Source: an uncultured Clostridia bacterium (GTDB lineage Bacteria > Bacillota > Clostridia > Christensenellales > UBA1242). From it: a DNA stretch of 64,000 bases. Both the position numbers and the translations under genes were made by a program. Positions 2,869 to 61,266 of this stretch are shown here, one piece after another (positions within the stretch are counted from its first letter, which is position 1; each line of letters begins with the position of its first letter). The stretch covers positions 38,907 through 102,906 of the forward strand of contig CALVNW010000003.1 of the NCBI GenBank assembly GCA_944350015.1. Reading direction: 5' to 3'. The notes under the pieces were generated by a model. It was not told where the DNA came from, searched no databases, and saw only the letters and a list, made by a program, of their open reading frames with translations.

Positions 2869-2899
2869 AAATTAACAATAACTTTATATGAGGTGTGTT

Positions 2900-5800: not shown

Positions 5801-8800
5801 CTTCTCTATGGCGACACGAACAACTTTAATGCAAGCAGTATAGACGGCTTTGATGAAACGGTAAATGATGGCTATCTTGCAACCACTATTGACAGCGTCG
5901 ATGTGACAAACGTCGATACTGGTGTTTGGGCGTTTGACTTCACAAGCGGGACCTTTGAGTTTGACTTTAATTTTGACTTTACCTACAAAGAGATTACAAT
6001 AAACGCAAGCGGGCTTGTCCTTAACGGCTCCTATGCACCAATAGACGTGACAGAGGATTTGTTTATAGGAAATAGCGGAAGTTTTAGATATAGCTACACA
6101 ATCTCAGACGGACAAGGACAAGTTAGCCTTACAAATGCAAGCTTTGGTGGAATACAAATTCACACTCAATATTATAACCTCGGCTGGTACCTCAAAAATG
6201 GCGAGGTGGTGACGATTGCAAACGGCAATTATAATGACATAGTCACAAATGCCAATTTGATTTCGGCATATCAAGACTTTTCAAGGGCTAGCAACGCCTC
6301 AAACTTTGCTATCAATGTTCAAGCAATCGTTGCGCCAAGAACGGTTACATTAAACTATGCAGGCGGTGAGGAACAGAAGGGAGAGCTAGTAGAACTTGAT
6401 ACCTCAAGCGACACCATAACTTACTCGCAAGGGGTGACTTTAAAGCAGGCATACAAAAACAAGGGTTACACCTTTGCAAATTATAGTTATACAATCGGCA
6501 CAACCAATTTTTCTGCTAAAGCAGGAGCGAACTTTGTTATCACAGGGCTCAACTTTGCAAACCTCTTTGGCAGTGGAAGTTTACTTCAAACTTGGACAAG
6601 TTTTGTCGATGAGAGCGCTCTTACAACCTCATCTGCGACAAATTTAACCCTCGTTTCTAATTGGAGCGTTATCAAATACAACCTCGTTATTGATGGAGTA
6701 ACTACTCAGTCGGCGCTTGAAATTGGCGATGAAATACGTTTTATTGCAAATGAGCCAAGCCTTAAAAATGGGCAGGGTGTATACCATATTTTTAGAGAGG
6801 GAATAGAGGTTGCTTCCTACAACGGCGGAGTGCTTGGCGGATATATTGCGGGCGGATTTGAACTTAGTCTTGAGGGAAAACTTTCAGCAACTATTGACGG
6901 CGATTACGCTTCAATCTTGTTTGACGGAGACAACTTTGATACCCTCATTGGCGCAAACTATGACACACTTCGCAGTATCACTGTGTCAACGATTAGAATT
7001 GCCTCAAGCTATAAGGTCTACATAGAAAATTCTCAGTATTTTGAGGTTACTATAAGTGGCAGTGGAGATAGCTTCGGGCAGGACGAGAACGGCGTTTACG
7101 TTGTTGTAGCCTATAACGCCTTGCCAAGCGTGCTTGACAAAAATAGTGAGGACTTCCTTTTTAACACCTCGTCTATAACAGGCAGAAACATCACAATTAC
7201 ACGTGTAGGCTATACTTTTGAAGGTGATTTTTATAATTTTGACCCAACTGAAATTTTTGACAGCCTCTCAGATATTACGATTAGTCCTATCTTTACAAAA
7301 TCAAACGTTTCAGCAGGCGGGGCAACTATCAAGTTTAGCGACGATTCGACGGGCGCAAACTTCTTCCTTTTAAATAGTCACAATATCACGATAGGTTCGC
7401 TTATAGATTTTGGCGACCTCGAAGATGATAGCGATGACATTACAATCTCGCTTACCGAAGATGAAATTATTCTTTCAAATGGTGACAAGGTGAGTGGATA
7501 CGGTTTTGCGCTTGTAAAAGATGGAGAAACATCCTACTATGAAGGCAACACCTTTAATATTAACAATATCTATGAAGATGGGTTATATTCAATTTACTTC
7601 TATATAGACCTTGTCGACACTTTACATAATTCTAGCGAAAATTATAGTTATAGACTTGGCTCGCAAAGTCTCTCTTTCACAATGAACAAAAACGCTTTTG
7701 GCTTTGACAGTAATTTGGTGTCGGCATATAATGGTACAAGCGAGTTTGTTCCAACCCTTTCAAGTGAAGGTTATAGCAATGTGAATGACTATGGCAGTGT
7801 TTACCTTGTTTATGGTTTTGCTGGCGTGGCAAGCGAAGAGAAGAGAGTAGTCTTTGATACCGAGGACTTCTTTAGAGGTTTTGTACTGACAGGTGGCGAC
7901 TATAATGTTGGCGAAAATAAAGATATAGCCCTTACAATTGACAGTGGCTATTTCACGCAAGTTACAAATATTGGCGGAGTTACGGTAAATTCTACTACCA
8001 ACTTTGCAAACCTTATCAGTGGAGTTGTGGCAAATGGAAGTGATTATGTTTATACCTATGAAGATGGTGCGACTATAGTAAAGGCTAGGTTTACAATCAG
8101 TTTTGGAAACACCTCATCTTATTACTTTGACGGCGTAAAATTGATTGTCTACACTCACGACGGCAATAACAGAACCTTCCAAATAGGTAGAGAGTATTTT
8201 AGTTACAACCTCTCGCGAATTGTCTATACTGGTGGTGCGGTGGATAGTGATACTGTCTTTACTGGCGCTAACAGAAGCGTCTTTGCTGTTGAAGGGTTGA
8301 TGATTGATGGTGAGGACTATCAAAACAATCAAGATAGGTGTTTTGAGTATGTTCTTGACGGTCAATTCAAACTACTAAATTCCGACAATGCGCTTAAAAA
8401 TTACTACTCAACAAGATATTTAACTGCGACAAACGGCGTGCTTAATGATACCCTTCTTCAAGACTACGAAGGGCTTGTGGATGGGCTATACTTAACAGAT
8501 GTTTATGTGGGTGGCATCGAGGTTGAGGTTGAGGGCAGTCAATTTACCTATAATGTTGACGATAATGTCATCTTTAGTGTTGTAAATAACGGCACTGGAA
8601 ACCTTCAAATCTTTGTAAGTAGGTCTGCACTTGCCACTCATACGCTTAGCTACAGCGTTGCAGTTTCGCTAACAAATGAAAGACTTAGCCATTTGACACT
8701 TCTCACTTTTGGAACTTCTCCAAACGGCAGAGATTATGACGAGATGTTAAACTCAGCCTTCTCCGACCCAGGCGGAAATGCCGACCCTTATCAAGTGTTT

Positions 8801-11800
8801 ACAATGTCGGCGGAATCTCAAAATAGCACCTTGTATGCAATTTTGACCGATGTTCGTAAGCTTTCCTTTAATTATAATGGCGGACACAACGAAGAAGGGC
8901 AGACAAGTGACATCATTTACCTATCTTACTCTAGTGCAGGCGGAGAATACATTTTAGGTAATCCAAGCAATAACTATAGCGGGCTTACTTTTAATGGGTA
9001 CTTCTATTCTGCAAATGGGCTTACCGCTGAGCAGAACGGTGCATATGCATACAAATTTGTTTCTCTTGATGGCGGTTCTCCAGTAGAACTTATAGCCCTA
9101 TGGAAACTGACTGGAGTAGATTATACCCCTGTAAGTGGTAGCGTCAATTTGAAAGCAAGCCTTAGCTCACAAGTTATCTATGTCACAAATTTTGTATCGC
9201 CTAAGGTGATTGAAGGGGGAAGTTATAGCTTTACATTAACTAAAAAGGATGACCCTAGTGTAACTTTTAGCTCAAGCGATGTCTTTACTTTTGCAGATTC
9301 GACAGGAAGAGTTCCTATTTCGCTTGGCGGAGAGTATACCCTTACTATTACTTTAACTTTTACCAATATCTATCAGACAAATCAAACAATCAGTCAAGGA
9401 ATTGACGTTGTTATAAATATAGATAAAAGTACAGTAGGCATAATAGGTACAAATGTTTTAACCTTTAATAATGCCGACCGCAAGAATGATATAACACTCC
9501 AAATGAGAGTGAATGGGGGAGCTTCGCCTCAAATGACGCTTACAAGCCTCACCCAAAATGGACTTACAAATTATGGTGTTGATGTGGCGACATCTCCAGA
9601 GGGTGAAATTAGAAATGCAGGGCAGTATGAAGTTGTGCTTTCAATTAACAGTGCATACTCTGACTTCTTTGAGCTTGAAAGTGGCTATGAGAAAATGCAA
9701 GTTACTATTAATAAATATGACTTGACCCTTGCTGACTATGCAAATCAAATAGAAGTCTATAAATTCTTTGGGCAAAGTGACCCAAATCCTATAAGAGATA
9801 CAATAACTGTGTCTCTTGTAAATACAGACAGCGTAGAGCTTAACTTTACAAGGCAGGCTGGAGAGTCGCTTGGTAACCATCCTCTTCTTACCGCCACCTT
9901 GACAGACCCAACAGATATAAACAACTACAATCCCATTACCGATGGCTTCGTTGCGTATTTTGTAATTCGCGTGCCAGACGGCGGATTGTTTGTAAGGCTT
10001 GATGGCAACATAACCTACACCTATAACGGCGAGGCGTTAACATCTCTTAGCACAAGGTATAATAGCAATACTCAAAAGTTTGAGGTATACGGTTTTGAAG
10101 GAAACGAGCAGGTTAGCCAATCGTTTAGCCTTTACTACCTAAGCGAGGGAGAAGAAATAGAGGTTCCTATTTCAGAGAGAGAAACCTATGCAAGATATAT
10201 CACCTTTAACTCATCTTCTGCTGGCAAAAACGTAGGGACCTATGAGTTTAGTGTGAGCTTGTCAAGCGAAGGTCAAGAAGCTGACTGGAGCGAAGCAAAT
10301 ATTGACACAGATTCAATAGCGCAAGACTATAATACTATTACAGTCACTAAGAGAACGATTACCTTAAATGCCATTAGCAAGGCCTTTGACCAATCAAGCG
10401 CCTTCACCTTTAGTATGGGCGGAGAATATAACGGAGTTAGCGCTGATATATCAAACTATATAGAAGTCGACAATATTATTATAAACGGCGTGGCAGAAAG
10501 CGAACTTGCAGGGCAAAGGGAGATTAAAGAGATTGCCCTAGATAGTCTAAGTGAGGCAAACTACACCTTAGAGCTTGCAAGCGGACTTCAACTTTTGATT
10601 ACACCTTCTATCGATGCTATTGAGGTAACATCTAATGTTAGCTCTCTAGCATATGGTACACTTTCACAAGATGACGTTCTATCAAAAATTCTTGAACAGC
10701 TACCTCTTATCTTCAATGAGGGTGAAATAAGCTCTAGTTACATAAATGTAACAGCTTATCAGTTTGTTTCTCCATCTTTCTCAACAGGCGGATACCTTGA
10801 GGCAGGTTCAAATTCAGTTTCAATTACCTTGACTTCAAGCAATTATACGTTTGGCGGGGAAGCTGGCGAAGTAGGAGAGGTATATCAAACTAATATAACC
10901 ATTTCCTTTGAGGTTACAAGGCTTGAGTTTGCAATAAGCAATTCAGACGTACAAATAATAAAGGAATATGATGGGGACAATCTGATTGGTGAGGATAATC
11001 TCAATCAAGTTGTTAACGGACAGTCGAGTCCATATTATTCAGCAGAACTTTTAAGCGGAGATATTATTCGCATCATAGGCGGGCAGTATAACGATAGTGA
11101 AGTCGGCAACAATAAGAAAATCACATTACTTGAATTTGATAGCACTTCTGATGACTCGAACAACTATATTATAACCTATCCAGTCTTGGTAGGTGCTATA
11201 ACAAACCATATTATTACCTTTAATGTTGACGCAACTACCGAGCATATAGACCTTGTCACTGATGGCGCTTTTGTCAAAGACGGTCTTAGTCCTATCGTAC
11301 AAGAGACTTTCTTTACCTTTGAATATCCTAACTTGCTGACAGGGCTTGAGCTATTGTCACAGATGGAGCTTCCTACAAGAGTTGGCTACACCGCAACAGG
11401 CTGGGCATACAAACAAGGAAATAATTACTTGCCAATAACTGTTGACAATATCCAAACGCTTATCAGAGATGTTGCCTTAGACGAGACTAACCCTGACGAG
11501 ACCATAACTATTTATGTTATTTGGCATATAGATAACTACAAAATCACAGTTGCTGGGGATGGTGTTGAAAGTTTTGAGGTAAGCGGTCAGTATTATGACG
11601 AGGAAACTCAAAGCGCAAGATACTTTAGCGATATTTCTATAGACGTTGTTGTAGATAAAGGTTATAAGATAGCAAGATATGAAGTAAACGGCAGTTATTC
11701 GAGGGCTGTTCTTGATGACGTCGATGGAAATAGTGGTACAGCTGAGGTGTTTGGTGTTGGCTCTGACCTTGAAATCACAGTTTATGCAAGCGAAATTGAG

Positions 11801-14800
11801 ATTACATTCAATATTGACACTAACATACCAGATTATACCTCACGCACCGATACAAATAGGACTTACTTAACCTATAAATACCCAGAACTAGTAAATATGT
11901 TTGCAAGAGACCTTCCAGCCTTCAGCGTAACTGCAGGCACATATACACTTGCAGGCTTTAGCTATAGCGGTGGAGATATCGGCGCGCTTTCACTTAAAGA
12001 GGTGGTAGACAACCTCTATCCAAATCTTGACGAAGATGTCAATGTTGACCTTACGGCAAACTGGGCAGGTGTACAATATGTTGTCACCTTCAACCCAGCA
12101 GGAGGCACGCTCACGGGAGAGAGCAGTCAAAAGGTGACTTATGGAAGCGCCTTTACAAGTCCTCTTCCTACTGCAACCTTGCCAGGACGCAGTGGTGTTT
12201 GGACTGATGCAAACGGCGTGACCTATGCAGATGGAAGTGTTTTCCACACAATCGGAACTTTGATTGAAGGGGTATGGAATGCAAGCTTAATTGCCGAATA
12301 CCAAAACAATACCTACATCCTAACCGTGCAGTTTGACAATAGACTTCAAGTTTTCTACAACGGAAGTCGAATTGCAAGTGGGGAGACGTTTGACGTCACC
12401 TATGATACTACTAATATCACTTTCACCATAACACCATTGCAAGGCTATGGCTATGACATTGACACCGATAGCCTTAATGGAAGCGTAACAGAAGGGACAA
12501 ACTCTGTCTCTGTTTACAATCTCACTGAGGACGGCGTTCTCAATATTGTTACAGTGCGTGGCACAAACAGAATGACTATTGCTGGCTATAATATCGACGG
12601 TTACAGCGTGATTATTGACGATGTTGAACAGCCAACAAATTCAGTGTATAACGTGCTTACTGAAAGCATCGTTAAGATTACTTTCACGGCAAGCTTTGGC
12701 TATGAGTTTGAAGAAAGTTGTCTAAGCCATACAACTACAGATTCAACTATCGACATTGAAATATCACAAGACAAAAAGACGATGACTGTCACTTGGAGTA
12801 ACTTTACTTCTGACATAACCTTTACGGTGGAGGCAAATCCAACGCTCAACACAGTGACCTATAATGATGTAAGTTCAATTTTCACAAGCCTTCAATTTAA
12901 TGGCGAAAGCGTCGCTCTTGTTGGGGGAGAGTATGGAGTTTATACCGAAGAAGGTTTGGAAATTGTTGCCACTTTAAGATATGGCTACTTTGACGGTAAG
13001 GTGACGGCAAGCATTGCCTCTTTCTTGACAGGTCAAGAATGTAACTATTTAAGGGCTGACGGACTTTATCATCTTGAGGCAAGCTTAGAGGACATAAATG
13101 AAAGTTTTAGCCTGACTTTTACCGCCACCGAGCGAAGTTATAACTTTGTAATAGCGGTTGAGAGCGGTAGCGAGGAGATTGGACAGATTACCGTATCTCA
13201 AAGTCAAACAGTTCAATTTGGACAGAACGTTCAGCTTGGCGTAACTTTACTTAGAGAAGATTATGTGTTCGCAGGTTGGAAGTTTAATGGCGAAATCATC
13301 TCAAGGACTGAAAATTCAAGTATTGAGCTTACCTCTTCGCTTAGACAGATGCTTGAAAGCGTAACGCCAGGACAGAGCATAACCATCTATGCAACCTTCA
13401 TCGACAGGGTGACAAGTATATCCTTCACTGCTGGTAATCACGGGCAGATAATCTTCTATCAAGAGGACAGCGCTCCAACAACTGTCAATGGTGGGCGAAC
13501 TGAAATTGGAAAGGTTAGATATGGTTATGACCTTATCATAGACATTTTGCCAGACGAGGGCTATAGACTTGACAAAATTCTAGTAGACGGAGAGGTTACA
13601 ACCGAGGGCTATGACCAAGAAACTTCAAAATTTACCATTTATTTGGATGCGGTGGAAGGAATATCAACTGTAGAGATTACCTTCACGGCAAAAGAAATCA
13701 CTGTAAACGTGCAAGCAGTTGTTCAACGCAATTATGAGCTTATATATGGCGACCCAACGGGCGGACTAATCTATCTTGTAGACTCCGAAGGTGTAAGGCT
13801 TGGCGATGAATATTACATCTGCTCAAGCGATAAGTTATACTTTGATTACACTGTAGATTCGGTGACTAACGGCACACTCTACTTCGCTTTGGAAACAAGG
13901 AGCGGTTATAATGCAATCTTAAATTCTACGACAGAGGGCGTTGTTGTAAGCGAGTACACGGCAAACGGCACTAGAATTTGGGCGGTAAGTGGATTATGCC
14001 AAGGAGCAAATATTCAAGCTATATTTATTGCCGTTGAAAATAATATCGAGGTTAGATTTGTAACCGCTGACACTACAACAGCGCTCAGTGCAGGACAAAT
14101 CAGAGTTGATACCTCATCAATAGATGTTAGAGCAAGTCAAAACAACACTCACAACACCTTTATCAGCGTGGTTACAGGGGCAACAATCAGTATGGATATC
14201 TACTCTATGTTCACCTATGACCTTCTTGCCGACGAACAAGGGAACTTAAACTACTATGTTGTCTATAGTAACGGAGCTTTTGATGAGGGTGCAGTTGTGG
14301 CAGGGCTTGTTGAAGAGAGTGATATCTACTCAAACGGCTTTACAAAACGTGCAACTCTTGAAATTACAAATGCGAATGCAAGTGCGACCATCTACATACT
14401 TGTCGAACCTAGAGTGTACAGCCTAAACTTCTATGTAACAGAGAATATATCAGTCAAGATTGAAAATGCGTTAATTTATGGTCAGGCACTTCCTATGACA
14501 AGCCTTACAGAAGAACAGCGCGCTCTTGTGTTCTCAACGAGAAGTGGCTATACCCTTGGCGGTTACTATACGATGCAACTTGCAAAAGGCACTCATTATC
14601 TAGACGGCAATGGTAACTTGCTCAAAAATTGGAGTGAGACTGGCTATAGATGGACAGGTTATGGCTATGTGCCAACCGACAACTTCGATGAGGCTACTCA
14701 AACCTTTACTATATATGCCGCTTGGATATATGATAGAGCGTCTATTGATTTGAATTTCTTGCCTATCGGGTTTAGCGGTAACTTTGTGAACTTAAATATT

Positions 14801-16438
14801 AAAAACTTTATCACGAATATCGCAAGCATCGGTGATAACGTTTGGATGAACCAAACTGACAATTGGTATGTCGAGGTGCCAGCAGGAGTAACTCTTCACT
14901 TTGACTCTATCCCAGTTGAAGGTTATCAGTTTATAAACTTCCTTGTCTCTATCAATAATGGTGAGACAGTGACGTGCGAGGGTGGCTTTGACCTTGAGTA
15001 TAGCGCTGGTTCATACAGTGTCACAGCGATTTATCAACCAATTCTAACCTTGACTACTACCGAGGGCGGAAGCGCTCAGGGCTTGCAAAGTGGTGTCGAA
15101 ATTGGGCAGTCATTCTCGCCTGATATCCCTCTCACTTTAAGGGCTACGGCAGAGGAAGGGTACAACTTCTTGTACTTCTTAAATATAGAAACCAACGAAA
15201 GGTACTATGCACAGTTTGATAATGCTAGCGGAAGTTATAACTATACTTTTGTTGATTTAATATCTACGCCTCTTAGAATTAGAGCGGTCTTTGAAGGCAA
15301 GCCAATTACTATAAACATTGACTTTACAGGTGCCTCGGGTATACATAGAATTCTCAATGTTTACCTTGATGACAGAGCGGTAAGTTATTCAGGACAAATC
15401 CTTGCCAATGTCGGACAGAGCCTTGTCATCGTCATTGAAAGAGAGTATGGCTATGCTATCGCAGTAGATGGCGGTATCTACAGTGAAAGTGTTGACAATA
15501 ACGGAAATTATAGATACACCTTTGCGCTTACCGCTGAGGGTCTTATTGAGGACGGCGAGAGTTATATACTTGACATCGATATTGATGCAACTCGAGAAAA
15601 CGTCAACCTCAGCTTTGATATGAAAGTTAAAGACGCGGTTAATGATAACGAAATCTTGCGCGCAGGAACGTTAAGCTATGTGGACGGAGATGGAAATACG
15701 TATAATGACATCAAAGCTGGCTCAGCCTACCAAATCTTGTATGGAGAAAGTGTCAGCTTAAGGGCATATACGAGTGCTAACTATAGAGTTTCTGATGTTT
15801 TACTTGATTACGATGGTGAGCAGGTAAGTTTGATGAGCTATCTTTTAGACAACACCCTTATCATCAACGAGTCCTTCTTAAATCGCTATCAAGCATACAA
15901 CCTCAAGATAACAATTGTCTATTCAAGACTTGTGTGGACCGATGAAGAAGTTTTGTCAGGATATATTGAAGGCACAAGCAGACTTCTTGGCAGTGGAACG
16001 GCAAGCAATCCTTACTATATAAGAAGCACACAAGAACTTGCCTTTGTCGCATATGCTGTCAACAATGGATTAACCAATAGTGATGACATCCTCTATAGCG
16101 AGGCATATTACGAGATAGTTGCCGACATTAGCCTTAGCGGAAGATTCTGGGAACCTATCGGCGTTCCAGATAGTCCTTTCAATGGCACGATGGACCTTGG
16201 CGAGTATGTAATATCGGGCTTAATTCTTTACAGAAGTTATCCAGCGCCAGAGTTATCTTATGGTGGTTTGTTCTGGTGCCTTGGTGATAATGCAAGGATA
16301 CTTAAAGATACAGACACTTTGACGCTTGTGCTTTGGATAATTTTCGCGCTCATTATACTTGCGATTATCATAGTAATCATTGTACACTACTACAGAAAAT
16401 ACAAGAGAAGAAAGATGAACGATATTGCAAATAATTAA
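2900..16438 (+). CDS. giant (about 4,510 aa) membrane-anchored surface protein with GLUG-type end modules and Listeria-Bacteroides-type repeats
   Basis: Uninterrupted 13.5-kb ORF. GAGG lies 6 nt before ATG 2900 (the track start 2888 is also possible). N-terminal signal peptide (LLLLALGLILFVPKVES). Repeated V.F..nGG....YG....P.P.R.GY.F.GW-like units (e.g. YVVTFNPAGGTLTGESSQKVTYGSAF..LPGRSG, YVFAGWKFNG, RSGYTLGGYY). N- and C-terminal modules (..DIDLQGAIWTPIGT..PFSGVFDGNGHKI.. and ..ADISLSGRFWEPIGVPDSPFNGTMDLG..). C-terminal TM helix plus RKYKRRK stop-transfer tail. Confidence 0.93.
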   Translation: MLRRCLKGFSCVALLLLALGLILFVPKVESENFSTQALSLAEGKGDDSLAKLSSEAWLDSGAITQVTSDDIMFINGNISPEGDYYYIKTALGLASVAYHINNGDKDYLSAIFLLGNDIDLQGAIWTPIGTAEHPFSGVFDGNGHKISNVVVQPVGVSSGSGQGLFGNINNAIISDLILDGTYSISEPTGGTLVGVATNSMIVSVRDNALDDVGGNASMQQIYTIGSNSSNVQVFLSTATLVRELKSIDPETSEVIFTLSIADLGELGKVDSQANIDFAGYAVYYFTANTSIYKYVNDELVNYFIVLVDKTFNDFSGSLVLPNSVYKANTYPEGYVSLMMKKNAIYFTHKPKLREQLSPTDTEVPYVVSRGYKVAIETPSVNDCYCLISPSEAYQTTLNLNYGYGNRVAIISGSYYDYSLDDMFGENAYLTDRLGFTVKSISTQSKGNISQEPSFYYNYPSYPSDTVNFEWTPLNDRGFDFYFLIDSESHADGSLTYAELSSAIGGVSVNKGTLDTNLVATNGRYTVKGLTSDDDNLANEVTLTFTLDAGYEISVVEEGGTQGSLIVDEDDVNNGFDGNNSYAYSKTSGVYLNFTNFTGEGESYNSANANNDSYCQVSASGSVRNTSGSGIVSSREERTYSITLSNIVGTTGNVYIVVKRAGEEINVVTSVYAFEDADLDSFSYTIDGAEYRENSFYIRGGLGQTVELTLKIDDDVNYFVLSANTSSSALTVSQVPVDGGRQMTVNGRTYYSYVTFRITVNSTEEEMALNVGIGGLRSYFKFVVQDGEGNILSPSAEDNSTKGISAVVNDIEGVGLNSTGLTEVREREGTLSDYVGVVANGYYIPTHITINHTGQGDVVTNAVLTFNEMTGRYEWTTTAPGQNIFNQIYQGGQDVDFTITITVKEAEFTLGWENFTFNISNGESVTSYTGGDNLEFLDDLFSLSFSSTVFVPGQSGRVTLTLTSLGLALLYGDTNNFNASSIDGFDETVNDGYLATTIDSVDVTNVDTGVWAFDFTSGTFEFDFNFDFTYKEITINASGLVLNGSYAPIDVTEDLFIGNSGSFRYSYTISDGQGQVSLTNASFGGIQIHTQYYNLGWYLKNGEVVTIANGNYNDIVTNANLISAYQDFSRASNASNFAINVQAIVAPRTVTLNYAGGEEQKGELVELDTSSDTITYSQGVTLKQAYKNKGYTFANYSYTIGTTNFSAKAGANFVITGLNFANLFGSGSLLQTWTSFVDESALTTSSATNLTLVSNWSVIKYNLVIDGVTTQSALEIGDEIRFIANEPSLKNGQGVYHIFREGIEVASYNGGVLGGYIAGGFELSLEGKLSATIDGDYASILFDGDNFDTLIGANYDTLRSITVSTIRIASSYKVYIENSQYFEVTISGSGDSFGQDENGVYVVVAYNALPSVLDKNSEDFLFNTSSITGRNITITRVGYTFEGDFYNFDPTEIFDSLSDITISPIFTKSNVSAGGATIKFSDDSTGANFFLLNSHNITIGSLIDFGDLEDDSDDITISLTEDEIILSNGDKVSGYGFALVKDGETSYYEGNTFNINNIYEDGLYSIYFYIDLVDTLHNSSENYSYRLGSQSLSFTMNKNAFGFDSNLVSAYNGTSEFVPTLSSEGYSNVNDYGSVYLVYGFAGVASEEKRVVFDTEDFFRGFVLTGGDYNVGENKDIALTIDSGYFTQVTNIGGVTVNSTTNFANLISGVVANGSDYVYTYEDGATIVKARFTISFGNTSSYYFDGVKLIVYTHDGNNRTFQIGREYFSYNLSRIVYTGGAVDSDTVFTGANRSVFAVEGLMIDGEDYQNNQDRCFEYVLDGQFKLLNSDNALKNYYSTRYLTATNGVLNDTLLQDYEGLVDGLYLTDVYVGGIEVEVEGSQFTYNVDDNVIFSVVNNGTGNLQIFVSRSALATHTLSYSVAVSLTNERLSHLTLLTFGTSPNGRDYDEMLNSAFSDPGGNADPYQVFTMSAESQNSTLYAILTDVRKLSFNYNGGHNEEGQTSDIIYLSYSSAGGEYILGNPSNNYSGLTFNGYFYSANGLTAEQNGAYAYKFVSLDGGSPVELIALWKLTGVDYTPVSGSVNLKASLSSQVIYVTNFVSPKVIEGGSYSFTLTKKDDPSVTFSSSDVFTFADSTGRVPISLGGEYTLTITLTFTNIYQTNQTISQGIDVVINIDKSTVGIIGTNVLTFNNADRKNDITLQMRVNGGASPQMTLTSLTQNGLTNYGVDVATSPEGEIRNAGQYEVVLSINSAYSDFFELESGYEKMQVTINKYDLTLADYANQIEVYKFFGQSDPNPIRDTITVSLVNTDSVELNFTRQAGESLGNHPLLTATLTDPTDINNYNPITDGFVAYFVIRVPDGGLFVRLDGNITYTYNGEALTSLSTRYNSNTQKFEVYGFEGNEQVSQSFSLYYLSEGEEIEVPISERETYARYITFNSSSAGKNVGTYEFSVSLSSEGQEADWSEANIDTDSIAQDYNTITVTKRTITLNAISKAFDQSSAFTFSMGGEYNGVSADISNYIEVDNIIINGVAESELAGQREIKEIALDSLSEANYTLELASGLQLLITPSIDAIEVTSNVSSLAYGTLSQDDVLSKILEQLPLIFNEGEISSSYINVTAYQFVSPSFSTGGYLEAGSNSVSITLTSSNYTFGGEAGEVGEVYQTNITISFEVTRLEFAISNSDVQIIKEYDGDNLIGEDNLNQVVNGQSSPYYSAELLSGDIIRIIGGQYNDSEVGNNKKITLLEFDSTSDDSNNYIITYPVLVGAITNHIITFNVDATTEHIDLVTDGAFVKDGLSPIVQETFFTFEYPNLLTGLELLSQMELPTRVGYTATGWAYKQGNNYLPITVDNIQTLIRDVALDETNPDETITIYVIWHIDNYKITVAGDGVESFEVSGQYYDEETQSARYFSDISIDVVVDKGYKIARYEVNGSYSRAVLDDVDGNSGTAEVFGVGSDLEITVYASEIEITFNIDTNIPDYTSRTDTNRTYLTYKYPELVNMFARDLPAFSVTAGTYTLAGFSYSGGDIGALSLKEVVDNLYPNLDEDVNVDLTANWAGVQYVVTFNPAGGTLTGESSQKVTYGSAFTSPLPTATLPGRSGVWTDANGVTYADGSVFHTIGTLIEGVWNASLIAEYQNNTYILTVQFDNRLQVFYNGSRIASGETFDVTYDTTNITFTITPLQGYGYDIDTDSLNGSVTEGTNSVSVYNLTEDGVLNIVTVRGTNRMTIAGYNIDGYSVIIDDVEQPTNSVYNVLTESIVKITFTASFGYEFEESCLSHTTTDSTIDIEISQDKKTMTVTWSNFTSDITFTVEANPTLNTVTYNDVSSIFTSLQFNGESVALVGGEYGVYTEEGLEIVATLRYGYFDGKVTASIASFLTGQECNYLRADGLYHLEASLEDINESFSLTFTATERSYNFVIAVESGSEEIGQITVSQSQTVQFGQNVQLGVTLLREDYVFAGWKFNGEIISRTENSSIELTSSLRQMLESVTPGQSITIYATFIDRVTSISFTAGNHGQIIFYQEDSAPTTVNGGRTEIGKVRYGYDLIIDILPDEGYRLDKILVDGEVTTEGYDQETSKFTIYLDAVEGISTVEITFTAKEITVNVQAVVQRNYELIYGDPTGGLIYLVDSEGVRLGDEYYICSSDKLYFDYTVDSVTNGTLYFALETRSGYNAILNSTTEGVVVSEYTANGTRIWAVSGLCQGANIQAIFIAVENNIEVRFVTADTTTALSAGQIRVDTSSIDVRASQNNTHNTFISVVTGATISMDIYSMFTYDLLADEQGNLNYYVVYSNGAFDEGAVVAGLVEESDIYSNGFTKRATLEITNANASATIYILVEPRVYSLNFYVTENISVKIENALIYGQALPMTSLTEEQRALVFSTRSGYTLGGYYTMQLAKGTHYLDGNGNLLKNWSETGYRWTGYGYVPTDNFDEATQTFTIYAAWIYDRASIDLNFLPIGFSGNFVNLNIKNFITNIASIGDNVWMNQTDNWYVEVPAGVTLHFDSIPVEGYQFINFLVSINNGETVTCEGGFDLEYSAGSYSVTAIYQPILTLTTTEGGSAQGLQSGVEIGQSFSPDIPLTLRATAEEGYNFLYFLNIETNERYYAQFDNASGSYNYTFVDLISTPLRIRAVFEGKPITINIDFTGASGIHRILNVYLDDRAVSYSGQILANVGQSLVIVIEREYGYAIAVDGGIYSESVDNNGNYRYTFALTAEGLIEDGESYILDIDIDATRENVNLSFDMKVKDAVNDNEILRAGTLSYVDGDGNTYNDIKAGSAYQILYGESVSLRAYTSANYRVSDVLLDYDGEQVSLMSYLLDNTLIINESFLNRYQAYNLKITIVYSRLVWTDEEVLSGYIEGTSRLLGSGTASNPYYIRSTQELAFVAYAVNNGLTNSDDILYSEAYYEIVADISLSGRFWEPIGVPDSPFNGTMDLGEYVISGLILYRSYPAPELSYGGLFWCLGDNARILKDTDTLTLVLWIIFALIILAIIIVIIVHYYRKYKRRKMNDIANN

Positions 16439-16450
16439 GGTTTAAAGCAA

Positions 16451-16480
16451 AAAACTCTATGGATTGCCATAGAGTTTTTT
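16451..16480 (+). terminator. rho-independent terminator of the giant gene
   Basis: ctctatgg / ccatagag stem followed by T6. Confidence 0.75.
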
Positions 16481-25998: not shown

Positions 25999-27327
25999 AT
26001 GCTATCTTGCGAGGAATTCATTACAAAAAACAAACTTTTTAAGCGTGGAGAGATTATAGGTGTTGGCTGTAGTGGGGGGAGCGACTCAATTGCACTTCTT
26101 CACTATCTTGCCTCAAATCAAGAGAAATTTGATATTGAGGTTGTTGCCATCCACGTTGACCACGAGATAAGAGAAAATAGCTATATTGACGCCGATTTTG
26201 TCAAAGAAAAAGCCAAAGAGCTTGGCGTGCGCTACTATAAATTCAGGGTTGATGCGCCAAAGATTGCTCGCGAGAAGGGCTTGAGCCTTGAGACCGCGGG
26301 AAGACAGGCAAGGTATGGAGTTTTCAAATCACTTTTGCAAAAAGGACTTGTCGACAAGATTGCTCTTGCTCACCATATGTCTGACCAAGCCGAAACTATC
26401 TTGATGCACATATTTAGAGGTAGTGGGGTGGCAGGCGCCAAGGGAATGAGTCCAATTAGCGACAAGGTGTATGTAAGACCATTTTTGAACACCTCAAAGG
26501 ATGACATCTATCAATATTTGGCAGAAAATCACCTTGACTACTGCGAAGATGAAACCAATGAGGATACAACCTACAACCGCAACTTTGTTCGCAATGTCAT
26601 TATGAAGAACATCTTGTCGCGCTGGCCAAATGCCATCGAAGCTATCGTCAATTTCGGACAAGCCATTGCTGATGACGACGAGTTTATCAACAAGCAAATC
26701 TACGCAGAGGCGATTATCAATGAAGACAAACTTGTGAGAATTCCGCTTTCTTACTTCTTGTTTGATAATGCCATTGTCACAAGAATTATCTTTAGGGCGG
26801 TAAAGTCCATCGGCATAACTCAGGACATCGAAAAGAGGCATATCGACCTTATTAAAAAGCTTGCTCTTAATGGCGAGAATGGTAAAAAATTGTCATTGCC
26901 TTTTGAGGCAGTTGCTATTAAGGAATATGACTACCTTACTATTATGAACAATCATAAAGAGAAGTTGAAGTTCGAGGCGCCATTCAAGTGTGGCGAGTTT
27001 GACCTTCCAAATGGTGAAAAACTCATTGTAAAACGTGTTAAAGACTATGCGTTGAAAGAGGGGCAACTTATAATTGATTATAGAAAGGTTCCTAAAGATG
27101 CTATATGGAGATTTAGACGTGAGGGCGATATGTTCACCAAGTTTGGTGGCGGGACTAAGAAACTTAAGTCATATTTGATTGACAAGAAAATCCCTGCAAG
27201 ATTGCGCGACATCTTGCCAGTGCTTGCCGATGAAAATCAAATTTACGCCATAGCAGGTGTGGAGATATCCGACCTTGCAAAAGTTGAGGGCGCCCCAACA
27301 GCCTATTTGATAGAACTAAGAGATTAG
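25999..27327 (+). CDS. tilS: tRNA(Ile)-lysidine synthase
   Basis: PP-loop motif GVGCSGGSDSIALL, 442 aa. Confidence 0.9.
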   Translation: MLSCEEFITKNKLFKRGEIIGVGCSGGSDSIALLHYLASNQEKFDIEVVAIHVDHEIRENSYIDADFVKEKAKELGVRYYKFRVDAPKIAREKGLSLETAGRQARYGVFKSLLQKGLVDKIALAHHMSDQAETILMHIFRGSGVAGAKGMSPISDKVYVRPFLNTSKDDIYQYLAENHLDYCEDETNEDTTYNRNFVRNVIMKNILSRWPNAIEAIVNFGQAIADDDEFINKQIYAEAIINEDKLVRIPLSYFLFDNAIVTRIIFRAVKSIGITQDIEKRHIDLIKKLALNGENGKKLSLPFEAVAIKEYDYLTIMNNHKEKLKFEAPFKCGEFDLPNGEKLIVKRVKDYALKEGQLIIDYRKVPKDAIWRFRREGDMFTKFGGGTKKLKSYLIDKKIPARLRDILPVLADENQIYAIAGVEISDLAKVEGAPTAYLIELRD

Positions 27328-27342
27328 AATAAAAAGAGTGTT

Positions 27343-27379
27343 AACGCCATTTAGTGAATACTGAATGGCGTTTTTTTTA
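27343..27379 (+). terminator. rho-independent terminator of tilS
   Basis: aacgccatt / aatggcgtt stem followed by T8. Confidence 0.8.
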
Positions 27380-27901
27380 TCATAGATACTAGCGTAAACT
27401 CAAAAGAAAAAGATGCTATTGATATTCACCTTTGGTTCCGCTCGTGCTGCCGCACTCGCTCTCTTCGCTCCGCTCGCGCCCGCGGGACCATAGCCCCCGC
27501 GAGGCACGTCGCTCCGCTATCTCTCCGAATAAGCGAGTAGAAAGTAGTACAATAACCTTTCTCTTATATTAATAGAAGATAGCCAACCTTAGGTTGGACC
27601 AATATCGGCAAACTTAGTTTGCATCAGTATCGTTTATTGTACCTGTAATTTTACTGTATCTTGGTCTGTCGGAGTAACCTAAAAAAGATGCTGACATCAC
27701 CTTTAATCGCCGAAAGGCGCGTATTTTAGTTGCCAAAGGCAACCAAAATACCCCTTAGAAACCCTAAAGCTTAGAAAGACCCCACATTCTTTCGAGCCTT
27801 ACGCTCGGCGATTTTAATCATCCTCATAGCAAGAAATTACGGAGAGATAAGCGCTCGTAGCATTTTTTGGTGATAATTTCGAGCGAAGTACGTCAATTTG
27901 C

Positions 27902-27965
27902 TTGACAAAAAATGCGGGGGGGGTAAAATAGGTTAGCAAAAATAAATTTTTGCTAACCTATTTTA
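27902..27965 (+). promoter_or_regulatory. P1 promoter with a G8 tract in its spacer, with the -10 embedded in a perfect palindrome (copy 1)
   Basis: TTGACA 27902-27907. 16-nt spacer ending in G8 (27916-27923). TAAAAT 27924-27929. Palindrome arms 27924-27943 and 27946-27965. Confidence 0.55.
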
Positions 27966-28064
27966 TATTTTTCATATATTTTAGTTTAATTTACTCTTAA
28001 AACAACAAATTAAAAATATTTTAAAATTTGTTATTAAATTTGACGCAATTGTGACGACACGCCT

Positions 28065-28093
28065 GTGACAAAGGGTAAATTAAAGGTTAAAAT
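28065..28093 (+). promoter_or_regulatory. P2 candidate proximal promoter (copy 1)
   Basis: GTGACA, 17-nt spacer, TAAAAT. The block is conserved in copies 1, 2 and 4. TGTGAC occurs twice (28050-28055, 28064-28069). Confidence 0.35.
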
Positions 28094-28158
28094 AGGGGTA
28101 TAAACTAGATGATTTTACACAAAGTAATATAAAAAATTAAATAAAGGAGTAAGAAAAA

Positions 28159-45246: not shown

Positions 45247-45725
45247 ATTTAAAACTCCTTTTAAGATATAAAAATCATAAGATTGTCACTTAAGACAAGA
45301 ACAATTATATAATATATATAAAATAAAACCAAACAAAAAAGAGTTGAAAAATGTTGAAAAGTGTTGAATAATGTTGAATTAACCTTAGTTTTTCAGTCTT
45401 ACGCTTGCACCAACCTTAGGTTGCGAGCCTCACGCTCGGCGCCAGCATTATGCTGGACATTTATCGTAGAATTTGTCTGTTATTGTGTTGTACCTTGGTC
45501 CAGCAAGCCTTACGCTTGGCGATTATCGTTGAGTGCAACTGTTGTTTTATTGTATCTTGGTCCGCCAGAGTATATTAAAAGAAGAAGTGTCGAGGACACT
45601 TTTAATCGCCGAAAGGCGCGTATTTTAGTTGCCAAAGGCAACCAAAATACCCCTTAGAAACCCTAAAGCTTAGAAAGACCCCACATTTTTTGTCTGAAAA
45701 ATTTTTTCGAAGTACGTCAATTTGC

Positions 45726-45789
45726 TTGACAAAAAATGCGGGGGGGGTAAAATAGGTTAGCAAAAATAAATTTTTGCTAACCTATTTTA
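45726..45789 (+). promoter_or_regulatory. P1 promoter with G8 spacer tract and palindrome (copy 2)
   Basis: TTGACA 45726-45731, G8 45740-45747, TAAAAT 45748-45753. Palindrome arms 45748-45767 and 45770-45789. Confidence 0.55.
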
Positions 45790-45888: not shown

Positions 45889-45917
45889 GTGACAAAGGGT
45901 AAATTAAAGGTTAAAAT
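45889..45917 (+). promoter_or_regulatory. P2 candidate proximal promoter (copy 2)
   Basis: GTGACA, 17-nt spacer, TAAAAT. Confidence 0.35.
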
Positions 45918-45928
45918 AGGGGTGAATA

Positions 45929-45953
45929 ATGCAAAAATCGTCGATTTTTGCAT
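45929..45953 (+). promoter_or_regulatory. 25-nt perfect palindrome in the leader just downstream of P2 (copy 2)
   Basis: atgcaaaaatcg t cgatttttgcat. Identical at 59413-59437. Confidence 0.5.
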
Positions 45954-46042
45954 AATACTAGATTATTTTACGCAAAGTAATATTAAAAACAAATGCCGAA
46001 AGGTGCCTCTTACTACGAGAGGGTTTTTAAAAGGAGAAAGGT

Positions 46043-48247: not shown

Positions 48248-48293
48248 ACAACTAGGAAGGACATTAAAAAAATATTAAATATAGTTTATTCAA

Positions 48294-48349
48294 AATAAAG
48301 TAAAGTTTTAGTTATCCCTATGGGTTAAACTGCTTTACTTTATTTTTTT
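48294..48349 (+). terminator. rho-independent terminator
   Basis: aaataaagtaaag / ctttactttattt stem followed by a T run. Confidence 0.75.
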
Positions 48350-48380: not shown

Positions 48381-48713
48381 AGGAACTCTAAAGTTTAGAA
48401 AGCCCCCACACCAACCTTAGGTTGGACCAGTAGCGTTGAGTGTATCTGTAATTTTATTTTACCTTGGTCCACAAAAACATTAAAAATAATCCTCTTTTTG
48501 GGGTTACAGATAGCGTGTCGCATTTTTTCGAGCCTTACGCTCGGCGTTTTCAACCATCCTCATTGGTAGTTTTTGCGGAGAGATAAGCGATCGTAGCATT
48601 TTTTGGTGATAAATTCGAGCGAAGTACGTCAATTTGCTTGACAAAAAATGCGGGGGGGGTAAAATAGGTTAGCAAAAATAAATTTTTGCTAACCTATTTT
48701 ACAGTAAAAAGGA
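48381..48713 (+). repeat. conserved mosaic upstream cassette, copy 3 of 4 (before gene 48720)
   Basis: Has the ctaaagtttagaaagccccc block, the ccaaccttaggttgg hairpin, a 40-nt unit (48431-48470), the cgagccttacgctcg block and the promoter/palindrome. It lacks the P2/leader part. Confidence 0.85.
48638..48701 (+). promoter_or_regulatory. P1 promoter with G8 spacer tract and palindrome (copy 3)
   Basis: TTGACA 48638-48643, G8 48652-48659, TAAAAT 48660-48665. Palindrome arms 48660-48679 and 48682-48701. The RBS follows within 10 nt. Confidence 0.6.
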
Positions 48714-48719
48714 GTGAAT

Positions 48720-50087
48720 ATGAAAAATTTAAGGTTCAAATTAACATCAGCGGTTATGGCGTTTGTGATTGTGACAAGTTTAGTGATTGTCGCAGTAGTA
48801 GCAGTGCCAAACATCAATTTAAGTATAAATGGCAATGTATCGTTTGTGGTAAACGAGACAGACGTTTACCTAAACAAGGTTACACTTAAGAACACAGTAA
48901 CAGAGATAGAGGAAGGTATCTATCAAGCAGGAGATAAAGTGCTTGATAATTATAGTGACCTATATATCCAAGAAAATACAAGTATAGATATTTCAGATGT
49001 GACAGTATTATCAAATCAGACAATGGAGATAGATTTTGATATGACTTCACTAAATGCAAACTATATCAAAGTGAATTTGTCTTATCAAAACTTGCCAAGC
49101 ACAGTGCATATAGCAAGCACAAGTTTGTATATGCCAAAGAACCCAAGTGAAGATTTGCTCCAAGGAGATACAAGAACATATAAAATTTATATCAAGAACA
49201 CCGGCACTTCAGCATTAAACCTATCAAATATAAATCTTCAGATATCCTTTGAAGAAAAGACTTCTTTACTACAAAATGATACCACAAATCAATACTACTA
49301 TGTAGAGATGGGAACAATAGCCACCTCAACAGGTAGCGAGTATATTAAGTGGAGATATATCTCAGCAGATGGCGAGAATGCATACACCTATAACTCAACC
49401 ACAGCCCCAACAGGGACAGGCTACTTTATCTTAGAAACAAATGTGTTAGATGCTGTAGGCTTAGACGGTACAAACAATATGATAGAGGTGCCATTTAATG
49501 CAGATTATATACAGGATGATGTTGAAGCTGATATAGAAAATCATCATATGCAGAACGGCTGGGAGAATATAGCCGCTAATGACTATTCAACAAGCAATGT
49601 AAGACAATATATCAATGGTAATAATGTATATGATGATAGAACTCTTGCAAACAACATATTTACCCCATCAGGTAGATATTCAAATATGTACGCTGACTAT
49701 AACATAGATCCAGAGAATGACTTAGTATATCAAAATATAATAGGGAGAAGTCTAGGAGATTTATATAAAGGTATGGGCTGGGATGGAAATAAATTTCCAC
49801 CAACATATTTTGATACTACTTTTCCAACCTTTAACGAAGGAGCAACAATAAAGTATACGGAAAATGACGTAGATAAATTCTGGTTATTATCATATAAAGA
49901 AGCTTACAATCTTTTCCCTACTATGTCAGATAGCTTATGGATGGATATATATTGGCTCCGCTCGCCTTATTCCCATACCGGTAAAGGTATGTGGGGATGT
50001 TATGTTGATAGCTCGGGTGATTTCTATTACACTAATGTTGTCCTCAGCAATCTCGCGGCTCGAGCAGCTTTCAAATTTTCGATTTAG
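48720..50087 (+). CDS. secreted protein of the same signal-peptide family with a C-terminal WLRSP..AARAAF (DUF6273-like) domain
   Basis: MKNLRFKLTSAVMAFVIVTSLVIVAVVAV N-terminus. GGAG lies 5 nt before ATG 48720. C-terminal ..DIYWLRSPYSHTG....SNLAARAAFKFSI. Confidence 0.88.
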   Translation: MKNLRFKLTSAVMAFVIVTSLVIVAVVAVPNINLSINGNVSFVVNETDVYLNKVTLKNTVTEIEEGIYQAGDKVLDNYSDLYIQENTSIDISDVTVLSNQTMEIDFDMTSLNANYIKVNLSYQNLPSTVHIASTSLYMPKNPSEDLLQGDTRTYKIYIKNTGTSALNLSNINLQISFEEKTSLLQNDTTNQYYYVEMGTIATSTGSEYIKWRYISADGENAYTYNSTTAPTGTGYFILETNVLDAVGLDGTNNMIEVPFNADYIQDDVEADIENHHMQNGWENIAANDYSTSNVRQYINGNNVYDDRTLANNIFTPSGRYSNMYADYNIDPENDLVYQNIIGRSLGDLYKGMGWDGNKFPPTYFDTTFPTFNEGATIKYTENDVDKFWLLSYKEAYNLFPTMSDSLWMDIYWLRSPYSHTGKGMWGCYVDSSGDFYYTNVVLSNLAARAAFKFSI

Positions 50088-50091
50088 CATA

Positions 50092-50125
50092 AAAGGGATA
50101 TTTTTAAATATCCCTTTTTGTTTTA
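50092..50125. terminator. terminator between convergent genes
   Basis: aaagggatat / atatcccttt stem followed by a T-rich run. Confidence 0.7.
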
Positions 50126-58909: not shown

Positions 58910-59208
58910 TTAATTTTAAGCGTATTGGAGAAAACGCTTAAAATTTATTAAGATGTCTTTCTAAACATCTTGACCTAATTATAGCACAAGAATTTTCAAA
59001 AATCAACTAAATACAACATATTTTGTAAAATATTTTACAAAATGTGCAAAATTTAACAAAACCTTATATGTGGGTTACAGATAGCGTGTCGCATTTTTTC
59101 GAGCCTTACGCTCGGCGTTTTTAATCACCCTCATTGACAGAAATTACGGAGTAGTAAAGTGTAGGAGCATTTTTTGGTGATAATTTCGAGCGAAGCACGT
59201 CAATTTGC

Positions 59209-59273
59209 TTGACAAAAAATGCTGGGGGGGTAGAATAGGGTATCCAAAATTTTATTTTGGATACCCTATTCTA
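59209..59273 (+). promoter_or_regulatory. P1 promoter variant (T-interrupted G7 tract) with a co-varied palindrome (copy 4)
   Basis: TTGACA 59209-59214, spacer ..gcTggggggg (G7 59224-59230), TAGAAT 59231-59236. Palindrome arms 59231-59250 and 59254-59273. Confidence 0.5.
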
Positions 59274-59372: not shown

Positions 59373-59401
59373 GTGACAAAGGGTAAATTAAAGGTTAAAA
59401 T
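59373..59401 (+). promoter_or_regulatory. P2 candidate proximal promoter (copy 4)
   Basis: GTGACA, 17-nt spacer, TAAAAT. Confidence 0.35.
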
Positions 59402-59412
59402 AGGGGTGAATA

Positions 59413-59437
59413 ATGCAAAAATCGTCGATTTTTGCAT
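59413..59437 (+). promoter_or_regulatory. 25-nt perfect leader palindrome (copy 4)
   Basis: Identical to 45929-45953. Confidence 0.5.
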
Positions 59438-59526
59438 AATATTAGATTATTTTACGCAAAGTAATATTAAAAACAAATGCCGAAAGGTGCCTCTTACTAC
59501 GAGAGGGTTTTTAAAAGGAGAAAGGT

Positions 59527-60912: not shown

Positions 60913-60966
60913 GGAGCCAGGAAGGGCAACAAAATCCCAGTTGAAAAAGAGCCTTAAAAAATAAAG

Positions 60967-61002
60967 AACAATGATTGCATATGATACCAATCATTGTTTT
61001 TT
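60967..61002 (+). terminator. rho-independent terminator
   Basis: aacaatgattg / caatcattgtt stem followed by a T run. Confidence 0.75.
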
Positions 61003-61266
61003 AAATAGGCATATTAGAACTATTAAGTAAATTTTATTTATCTTAATTATTAACTTATTAAAATTAAATTTAAAAATAGTTATTTCTGAGTGTTATTTTT
61101 TTGCCTATAAATTAAGTTGTATTTATCTAAAAAAATATTTTGATGATAAAAAATTAACAAATAATTTATAAAAACATCAAAAAATAGTACAGAAATTTGA
61201 CTTTTGATATGATTTTAACTATAATATCTTCGTTGTTTAAAAATAAGTTATACAAAGGATGAAAAA

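Follow-up and report, generated by a model that had tools for sequence, protein, structure and literature searches.

How does a promoter come to carry a perfect palindrome through its −10 box, what keeps the two arms alike while their sequence changes, and what might the structure do? These questions are raised by a 64,000-nucleotide (nt) stretch of contig CALVNW010000003.1 (assembly GCA_944350015.1, an uncultured Clostridia bacterium of the gut), referred to here as the window, in which four copies of a promoter cassette share an inverted repeat whose left arm begins with the −10 hexamer of a promoter, P1. An earlier sequence-only reading of the window proposed four roles for the palindrome: an operator for a dimeric regulator, an insulating terminator, a cruciform or a recombination site. 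Among these, the insulating terminator appears to be the best fit. Palindrome symmetry is strongly though not absolutely maintained in related genomes, and the way in which it changes suggests copying between the arms. Labels of the form L0xx denote related loci retrieved from genome and metagenome collections, and window positions are counted from its first letter.

Four copies of a promoter-embedded palindrome

Exact matching and a repeat search of the window agree on four palindrome copies with perfect 20-bp arms, at the positions given in the sequence-only reading. Each begins at the −10 box of its own P1.

27924-27965, + strand: palindrome copy 1, type A, TAAAATAGGTTAGCAAAAAT-AA-ATTTTTGCTAACCTATTTTA, arms 20 bp, centre AA
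45748-45789, + strand: palindrome copy 2, type A, same sequence as copy 1
48660-48701, + strand: palindrome copy 3, type A, same sequence as copy 1
59231-59273, + strand: palindrome copy 4, type B, TAGAATAGGGTATCCAAAAT-TTT-ATTTTGGATACCCTATTCTA, arms 20 bp, centre TTT
27902-27929, + strand: P1 of copy 1, −35 TTGACA at 27902-27907, −10 TAAAAT at 27924-27929, the latter being the start of the left arm
45726-45753 and 48638-48665, + strand: P1 of copies 2 and 3, layout as at copy 1
59209-59236, + strand: P1 of copy 4, TTGACA, spacer aaaaatgct plus G7 (59224-59230), −10 TAGAAT
45740-45747 and 48652-48659, + strand: G-runs of copies 2 and 3, in the −35/−10 spacer

In the repeat search, arm complementarity is 100% over 20 nt, and over 21 nt at copy 3. 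Dinucleotide shuffles predict 0.00 exact matches to either palindrome. Four arm positions, 3, 10, 13 and 15, distinguish types A and B, and each difference has its mirror in the opposite arm, as the earlier reading had observed. Folded as RNA, the palindrome reaches −21.4 kcal/mol (type A) and −27.6 kcal/mol (type B), with z-scores of −8 and −9 and none of 200 shuffles doing as well; at copy 1 the RNA in effect forms a 19-bp stem closed by the loop TAAA. Folded as single-stranded DNA, the values are −16.8 (A) and −18.6 (B) kcal/mol, with z-scores of −9 to −10. The T-rich run described behind the right arm is present at copies 1, 2 and 4 (TATTTTT) and absent at copy 3, where a ribosome-binding site follows the right arm directly (cagtaaaaaggagtgaatATG), the ATG lies at 48720, and there is neither a T-run nor a long leader.

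A promoter scan recovers P1 at all four sites as TTGACA-16-TAAAAT or TAGAAT, with 11 of 12 consensus matches, and at each site the left arm opens with the six bases of the −10 hexamer. All four palindromes lie on the + strand and are preceded by the same 24-nt segment, GTCAATTTGC-TTGACA-AAAAATGC. The spacer of copy 1 consists of aaaaatgc plus G8 (G-run 27916-27923), and the copy-4 locus in other strains has a spacer ending in gc plus G8 instead of aaaaatgct plus G7. The left palindrome boundary always coincides with the end of the G-run. Run lengths of G7, G8 or G9 give P1 a spacer of 15-17 bp and are polymorphic between samples and strains; several near-identical loci differ only in the G-run (L009 vs L036, L004 vs L037, L005 vs L026, L042 vs L044), and some runs are interrupted, for example as gGAG6 or G5AG3. 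Spacer G-runs also occur at L002-L009, L018-L037, L038, L042-L045 and L052-L055. The length polymorphism suggests slipped-strand phase variation of what is predicted to be a BspA-like surface-protein family in uncultured Clostridia. From its distribution, the poly-G promoter appears to predate the palindrome and to be the more widespread of the two.

Variation and maintenance of the arms

Further copies were sought with a promoter scan of the genome and metagenome collections, and on contigs that encode relatives of the N-terminal domain and of genes flanking the cassettes in the window. Together these yielded about 30 additional cassettes, and the related loci derive from metagenome-assembled genomes (MAGs) labelled uncultured Clostridia bacterium. 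Palindrome-bearing P1 promoters are found in three related lineages, namely the window species, the MAG CAMLSW01 and the L038/L039 lineage, which together hold ten distinct palindrome versions.

Type A, window copies 1-3, L056 and L071: left arm TAAAATAGGTTAGCAAAAAT
Type B, window copy 4: left arm TAGAATAGGGTATCCAAAAT
Type C, L002 and L003: left TAAAAT, right ...ATTCTA, giving an A.C mismatch within the −10
Type D, L009, L021 and L036: outermost pair a T.T mismatch, right arm ending ...TATTTTT
Type E, L004 and L037: left arm TAAAATAGAGTTGTCAAAA
Type E', L018: a single U.G
Type F, L007:7572: ...AGAGCTGTC...
Type G, L007:1225: −10 changed to TAAACT, mirrored as AGTTTA
Type H, L038:9612: A.C at position 7
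Type I, L038 15715-15793: perfect 20-bp arms with 39 nt between them

In an alignment of the ten versions, 98.4% of stem cells are standard pairs and both partners have changed in 9 of 19 pairs (24 cells), extending the compensatory pattern well beyond the four changes first seen. None of 500 shuffles reaches the observed pairing and covariation, and sliding the partner by 1-3 columns leaves only 38-54% pairing. Uncompensated changes, which would speak against a maintained symmetry, do so here only marginally: the ten versions contain three internal and two terminal mismatches. All versions but type I measure 41-43 nt in total, with centres of 3, 4 or 5 nt; that of type I is 39 nt. Among about 75 loci, the palindrome never occurs without the promoter. 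A mobile element, whether a repetitive extragenic palindromic sequence or a miniature inverted-repeat transposable element, was considered and rejected: the palindrome is always with the promoter, phage and plasmid collections hold no cassette match, and the single viral-contig match is an unrelated chance promoter.

Conservation along the cassette is uneven. Average identity between copies is 92% in the promoter, 59% at arm positions 9-15 and 40% in the leader, and in 14 of 15 loci the two arms match each other at positions 9-15. An outer block (TAnAnTAG) and an inner block (AAAA) are kept in all copies. These constant blocks, and an inverted repeat whose centre falls just behind the −10, the classic operator position, are what would be expected if a dimeric repressor bound the repeat and occluded the P1 −10. 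The outer block is, however, the −10 itself, and the 7-bp middle block of the half-site varies within the window (GTTAGCA vs GGTATCC). A single genome can hold two to four different middle blocks; one MAG carries GGTATCC, AGTTGTC, AGCTGTC and GGCTGTC, and one protein could not read all of these. Spacing is likewise unfixed, from a centre of 3-5 nt to the 39-nt insert of type I, and 20-bp arms far exceed typical half-sites. No regulator gene lies consistently beside the cassettes, which leaves room for one encoded elsewhere. The variable half-site block and centre length thus tell against the operator once proposed for this element, and such a role is very improbable.

The kinds of change seen in the arms point instead to the way in which they are copied. 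Transversion-type swaps account for five of the nine double changes (AU to CG, GC to UA, AU to UA, GC to UA, CG to AU), for which no G.U intermediate exists. Two swaps lie within the −10 hexamer, at position 3 (TAGAAT/ATTCTA) and position 5 (TAAACT/AGTTTA), and judging from their positions both should weaken the promoter and any U-tract. The centres AATA (L004) and TATT (L007, L038) are exact reverse complements, and at the copy-4 orthologous locus different samples have TAAA or TTTTA, an inversion plus 1 nt; both flips can equally be written as two mirrored substitutions or as A/T-run slippage. In the literature cited here, arm homogenisation with spacer inversion is a signature of replication template switching (PMC8794818, PMC8604942), and multi-base compensations and stem extension are further footprints of the same process (PMC8794818, PMC8604942, PMC13100816, PMC7202029).

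The right arm can be regarded as an inverted copy of the −10 hexamer and the next ~14 bp (the discriminator and the predicted first transcribed bases), placed 3-5 nt downstream. Template switching between the arms, or quasipalindrome correction, would then revert single-arm changes or copy them across; the centre would occasionally flip in the process, and compensatory changes would arise without stepwise selection. The sequence-only reading had left selection on the structure and templated maintenance side by side. Transversion swaps and apparent centre flips favour the second, and selection on the structure is the poorer fit. The mirrored changes therefore fit an origin mainly in templated copying between arms, probably aided by gene conversion between cassettes. 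Since template switching can hold arms identical without selection, the covariation itself is no evidence of selection on structure or function. Only the template-switch step explains why −10 changes are mirrored even though they should weaken the U-tract.

Two further attempts to read the variation were set aside. An in-situ loop inversion at the copy-4 locus was rejected because the L066 allele is a mosaic that contains other cassette sequence; its TAAA loop could equally have come from gene conversion. The acting strand was sought in wobble asymmetry; the internal mismatches (A.C, A.C and U.G on the + strand) are all transitions, are mirrored on the − strand, and are hence uninformative.

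Cassettes are also exchanged as units. At the locus after an identical TilS, one strain has a type A cassette and another a type B cassette whose upstream segment differs. Swapped or mosaic cassettes are seen between strains at orthologous loci (window 25999-28160 vs L059; 59150-59400 vs L066), and the metagenome contigs L037, L039, L057 and L058 end within the cassette, indicating that assemblies break there. Such exchange would be expected if the palindrome were a site- or structure-specific recombination site that moved promoter cassettes between surface-protein genes, and in short-leader copies the right end of the palindrome is indeed the junction of the conserved module with unrelated sequence. 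Several observations nevertheless make this role hardly credible, contrary to the suggestion in the earlier reading. Neither the window nor the related loci examined have a recombinase or transposase gene near a cassette. Inverted or excised forms were not seen either, and the palindrome occurs nowhere but at the promoter. The arms are perfect, lack bulges and have no conserved core outside the −10. Homologous gene conversion between promoters that are 92-100% identical accounts for the mosaics.

Candidate roles of the hairpin

It is plausible, though still short of probable, that the palindrome is a terminator-type hairpin that insulates P1 and leaves a short stem-loop at the 5' end of P1's own mRNA. 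Polymerase arriving from upstream would transcribe both arms and form a hairpin of −21 to −28 kcal/mol, with the −10 box serving as the A-tract. With a G/C-rich stem base followed by AUUUUA, the hairpin has the A-tract/stem/U-tract layout of intrinsic terminators in this genome, and incoming transcription would be expected to stop there, with upstream transcripts ending at ...CCUAUUUU(A). Each poly-G, putatively phase-variable P1 alone would then decide the expression of its surface-protein gene. RNA begun at P1 would start about 6-8 nt past the −10, inside the left arm (positions 12-15), and would keep only a 7- to 9-bp 5' hairpin of −6 to −7 kcal/mol (z-scores −1.7 to −2.7). Lacking an adjacent U-tract, this residual hairpin would not terminate transcription and may protect the 5' end of the mRNA.

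Several features of the hairpin are consistent with an insulating terminator. A promoter/terminator scan scores the palindrome as terminator-like at copies 1, 2 and 4, and a stricter terminator scan calls the type-A copies (1-3) on both strands. The stem base is G/C-rich in all variants (AGG/CCU, AGGG/CCCU, AGAG/CUCU or AGGGC/GCCCU). Taking the stem to end at this base, most variants have the tail AUUUUA, AUUUUU or AUUUUG; types B and C have AUUCUA, and L007:1225 has AGUUUA. Only ~7 of 12 contexts, copy 3 not among them, have an extra T-run beyond the full palindrome. Type I keeps perfect arms around a 39-nt loop, which suits an RNA hairpin rather than an operator or easy cruciform extrusion. 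The window also offers its own standard of comparison:

16449-16480, 29917-29957, 50095-50114, 60962-61003 and 62050-62073: gene-end terminators, perfect A-tract/stem/U-tract palindromes

The strict scan places the first two of these at 16455-16474 and 29925-29949. These terminators are 32-47 nt long and pair 4-8 bp into their A and U tracts; at −14.5 to −17 kcal/mol they fold less stably than the P1 palindrome.

Other observations weigh against insulation. The transcription start site and transcript 3' ends on which it depends are predicted from sequence. Insulation looks redundant, as tilS has a strong terminator of its own (27343-27372), an AT-rich A-tract/U-tract hairpin lies right behind gene 2 (48292-48346), and the cassette itself contains a weak terminator-like hairpin ~110 nt upstream of P1 (27792-27808, 59099-59115). 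The palindrome would thus not be needed to end upstream units and could be a second-line insulator only. Terminators need no pairing in their A and U tracts, yet the −10 changes are mirrored. P1 occurs as far as TAAAATAGGGTATC without a right arm in three leader types (L005/L026, L006/L046 and L020/L030/L035), and more distant poly-G promoters (L042, L052) lack the right arm as well. Template switching, finally, deprives the covariation of any weight as support for function.

Two related proposals failed. The palindrome was considered as the sole terminator between tandem genes, using the interval between genes 2 and 3 and the regions upstream of the L009 and L007 cassettes; the strict scan and the promoter/terminator scan behind this idea had found nothing else there, and reading the sequence then revealed the 48292-48346 hairpin and a weak CGAGC/GCTCG hairpin in the cassette. 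A divergent promoter was also considered, as the right arm supplies a minus-strand TAAAAT, but in the long-leader copies, read by eye, nothing like a −35 hexamer stands 16-18 nt away. Only copy 3 has a weak minus-strand match (TTCATA-17-TAAAAT, 9/12).

In another explanation, the palindrome is mostly a mutational by-product: only the short, mRNA-stabilising 5' hairpin would be selected, and template switching would have extended the arms outward as far as the hypermutable G-run. This is possible, if rather unlikely, and the same reserve applies to its corollary that the outer 11-13 bp (discriminator and −10) have no function of their own. Two reports describe template switching as expanding inverted-repeat arms (PMC13100816, PMC8794818), and the left boundary lies at the G-run, which would be expected if a length-variable tract cannot stay complementary. 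Every alternative leader has a small hairpin near its predicted 5' end, namely CTATA-gaaa-TATAG in L020, GGGTG-g-CACCC in L005 and TTGTG-gaga-CACCAA in L006. Further evidence comes from a second promoter-like site, P2, in the long leaders:

28065-28093, 45889-45917 and from 59373, + strand: P2 promoter-like site, GTGACA-17-TAAAAT
45912-45970, + strand: degenerate sister palindrome of P2, beginning at the P2 −10, arms 29 nt, 76% complementary

The inner 12-15 bp of the P2 sister palindrome are perfect while its outer arms have decayed to 76%, and an equivalent structure is present at ~59396-59454. This pattern is what a selected inner hairpin would leave behind. It also cuts the other way, in that template switching alone should have kept the outer arms of P2 perfect too; their decay argues for a further constraint on the outer arms at P1. 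There, the outer arms have stayed perfect or nearly so in ~12 loci from three lineages, despite an adjoining leader of low identity, and total length is nearly invariant. The inner P1 hairpin is moreover weak for an element under selection, as its folding energy and z-scores indicate.

A third explanation places the function in DNA, either as a cruciform that sequesters the −10 and makes the promoter supercoiling-sensitive, or as a replication hairpin that stalls the fork and raises slippage in the G-run. It is the only functional explanation that requires pairing within the −10 itself, where positions 3 and 5 are mirrored. Perfect arms, an all-A/T centre of 3-5 nt and the stability of the DNA hairpin favour extrusion, and the left arm abuts a G-run whose length varies between strains at one locus. 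Horwitz and Loeb reportedly found in 1988 that cruciform extrusion repressed a synthetic Escherichia coli promoter, and Viguera, Canceill and Ehrlich are said to have concluded in 2001 that polymerase pausing at hairpins promotes slippage. Even so, in vivo extrusion of 42-bp palindromes is generally rare, and extrusion would be very slow across the 39-nt spacer of type I, which has perfect arms all the same. G-run variation is equal at promoters that lack the palindrome, with no visible difference between the two groups (L005 G8 vs L026 G9; L042-L045 G8 or G9). A function at the DNA level is accordingly unlikely. The more specific proposal, in which a −10 embedded in an extrudable hairpin against the G-run lets DNA structure gate the promoter or tune slippage while template switching repairs the symmetry, is improbable as well.

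Cassette surroundings and comparison with known systems

The insulating terminator, if it operates, would serve the following genes:

28159-29898, + strand: downstream gene 1, BspA-type leucine-rich repeat (PF13306) surface protein with an N-terminal signal or transmembrane segment
46043-48247, + strand: downstream gene 2, BspA-type leucine-rich repeat protein (PF13306)
48720-50087, + strand: downstream gene 3, secreted or membrane protein with a similar N-terminus, no Pfam match
59527-60912, + strand: downstream gene 4, BspA-type leucine-rich repeat protein (PF13306)

The genes behind the P1 copies are thus predicted to encode paralogous secreted or membrane proteins, three of four with BspA-type repeats. 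Neighbouring genes are housekeeping genes (tilS, recO and a pseudouridine synthase), and no dedicated regulator gene was found near the cassettes in the window or the related loci examined. An Rfam scan returned only two tRNAs in the window and one ornate large extremophilic (OLE) RNA in L006, and nothing at the cassettes. The OLE RNA (RF01071, L006 6389-6966, 371 bits) lies ~1.1 kb downstream of one poly-G promoter. Elsewhere in the window, positions 2888-16438 of the + strand form a single open reading frame of 4516 aa, followed by the A-tract/U-tract terminator at 16449-16480.

The cassettes hold further small structures. P2 is preceded by the direct repeats TTGACG..TGTGACG..TGTGACA, and copies 2 and 4 have its inner hairpin, ATGCAAAAATCG-t-CGATTTTTGCAT, which is precisely missing from copy 1. 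In long leaders a terminator-like hairpin, CCTCTTACTACGAGAGG followed by GTTTTT, stands immediately before the ribosome-binding site (46006-46022, 59490-59506), and it may act as a transcription attenuator for the long-leader genes. The upstream part of the cassette (27698-27792, 45597-45691; also 27792-27808, 59099-59115) contains small GC-rich hairpins, CGCCGAAAGGCG, GTTGCCAAAGGCAAC and CGAGCCTTACGCTCG, some of them terminator-like.

Related loci add elements of their own. A hairpin with a 13-bp stem, CACCAAAACACTA/TAGTGTTTTGGTG, encloses a ~40-nt sequence (..gcggttagcc..gcgtgcccgcg..) at L006/L046 ~5860-5925, L042 9420-9520 and L005 ~7260-7300. Both orientations of this sequence are found near the promoters of different genomes, and it is a candidate for a small mobile or invertible element. 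A perfect DnaA-box-like 9-mer, TTATCCACA, occurs in or near leaders of three lineages and is absent from the window cassettes:

L038 15747-15755: TTATCCACA site, within the 39-nt loop insert of type I
L020 8520-8528 and 8825-8833: TTATCCACA sites
L035 432-440 and 734-742: TTATCCACA sites
L042 9763-9771: TTATCCACA site

On L024, an unrelated metagenome contig, positions 2398-2488 place a −35 TTGACA in the right arm of one terminator-like palindrome and a −10 TAAAAT at the opening of a second, AAAATAGGCGAATTC-ttta-GAATTCGCCTATTTT. This is a chance match, and it indicates that overlap of promoters with terminator tracts arises easily in AT-rich DNA.

If the terminator reading is correct, the element would be a compact natural promoter-plus-insulator, in which 42 nt supply the −10, block incoming transcription and cap the 5' end of their own mRNA. 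Insulated, independently switching promoters would suit a surface-protein gene family, and such a design would be of interest for work on phase variation in commensals and on insulated promoters. Whatever its function, the palindrome offers a clean bacterial case in which hairpin covariation cannot be taken as selection on structure. Homogenised arms and a likely loop flip can be seen when paralogues or strains are compared, and these changes reach into the −10 hexamer, where two changes expected to weaken the promoter have been copied to the opposite arm.

A literature search on terminators overlapping a −10 box and on poly-G promoters in Clostridia found no equivalent described, nor any account of a natural promoter in which the −10 forms the outer stem of a perfect hairpin that homogenises itself. 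The closest structural likeness is to the intrinsic (Rho-independent) terminators at the window's own gene ends. The palindrome shares with them an A-tract, a stem that is G/C-rich at its base, a short loop and, in most variants, a U-tract, is of comparable size (41-43 vs 32-47 nt), and likewise extends its pairing into the tracts. It differs in sitting on a promoter rather than after a gene, in having the −10 hexamer as its A-tract, in a pure A/T inner stem, and in a U-tract that is short and weakened in some variants (AUUCUA, AGUUUA); it is known here from sequence alone.

In their manner of change, the arms resemble template-switch quasipalindromes as these are described in four papers (PMC8794818, PMC8604942, PMC7202029, PMC13100816): mirrored multi-base changes, transversion swaps, apparent spacer inversion, few single-arm mismatches, and arms that stay identical while their sequence drifts. 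The cases treated there are rRNA, yeast genes and promoters, and E. coli reporters, whereas here the process would act on the −10 and initial transcribed region of a multicopy cassette.

Other likenesses concern single aspects of the cassette. Stem-loops that stabilise the 5' ends of Firmicute mRNAs are known from the aprE, ermC and S-layer gene leaders. The predicted P1 transcript similarly starts at the base of a 7- to 9-bp hairpin and would belong to genes for abundant surface proteins; the P1 hairpin differs in being weak and in following a predicted start site, and stabilisers do not reach into untranscribed promoter DNA. The synthetic cruciform-regulated promoter also has a perfect palindrome that includes the −10 region, and was an engineered E. 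coli construct. The vlp genes of Mycoplasma hyorhinis have a phase-variable promoter with a poly-A homopolymer in the −35/−10 spacer. P1 resembles such homopolymer-spacer promoters in its G7-G9 run, 15- to 17-bp spacing, strain differences and multigene surface-protein family, a likeness that concerns only the palindrome's context; to our knowledge, none has been described with a hairpin overlapping the −10. The ingredients of the cassette are each known, namely A-tract terminators, 5' stabilising hairpins, homopolymer-spacer phase variation and quasipalindrome correction.

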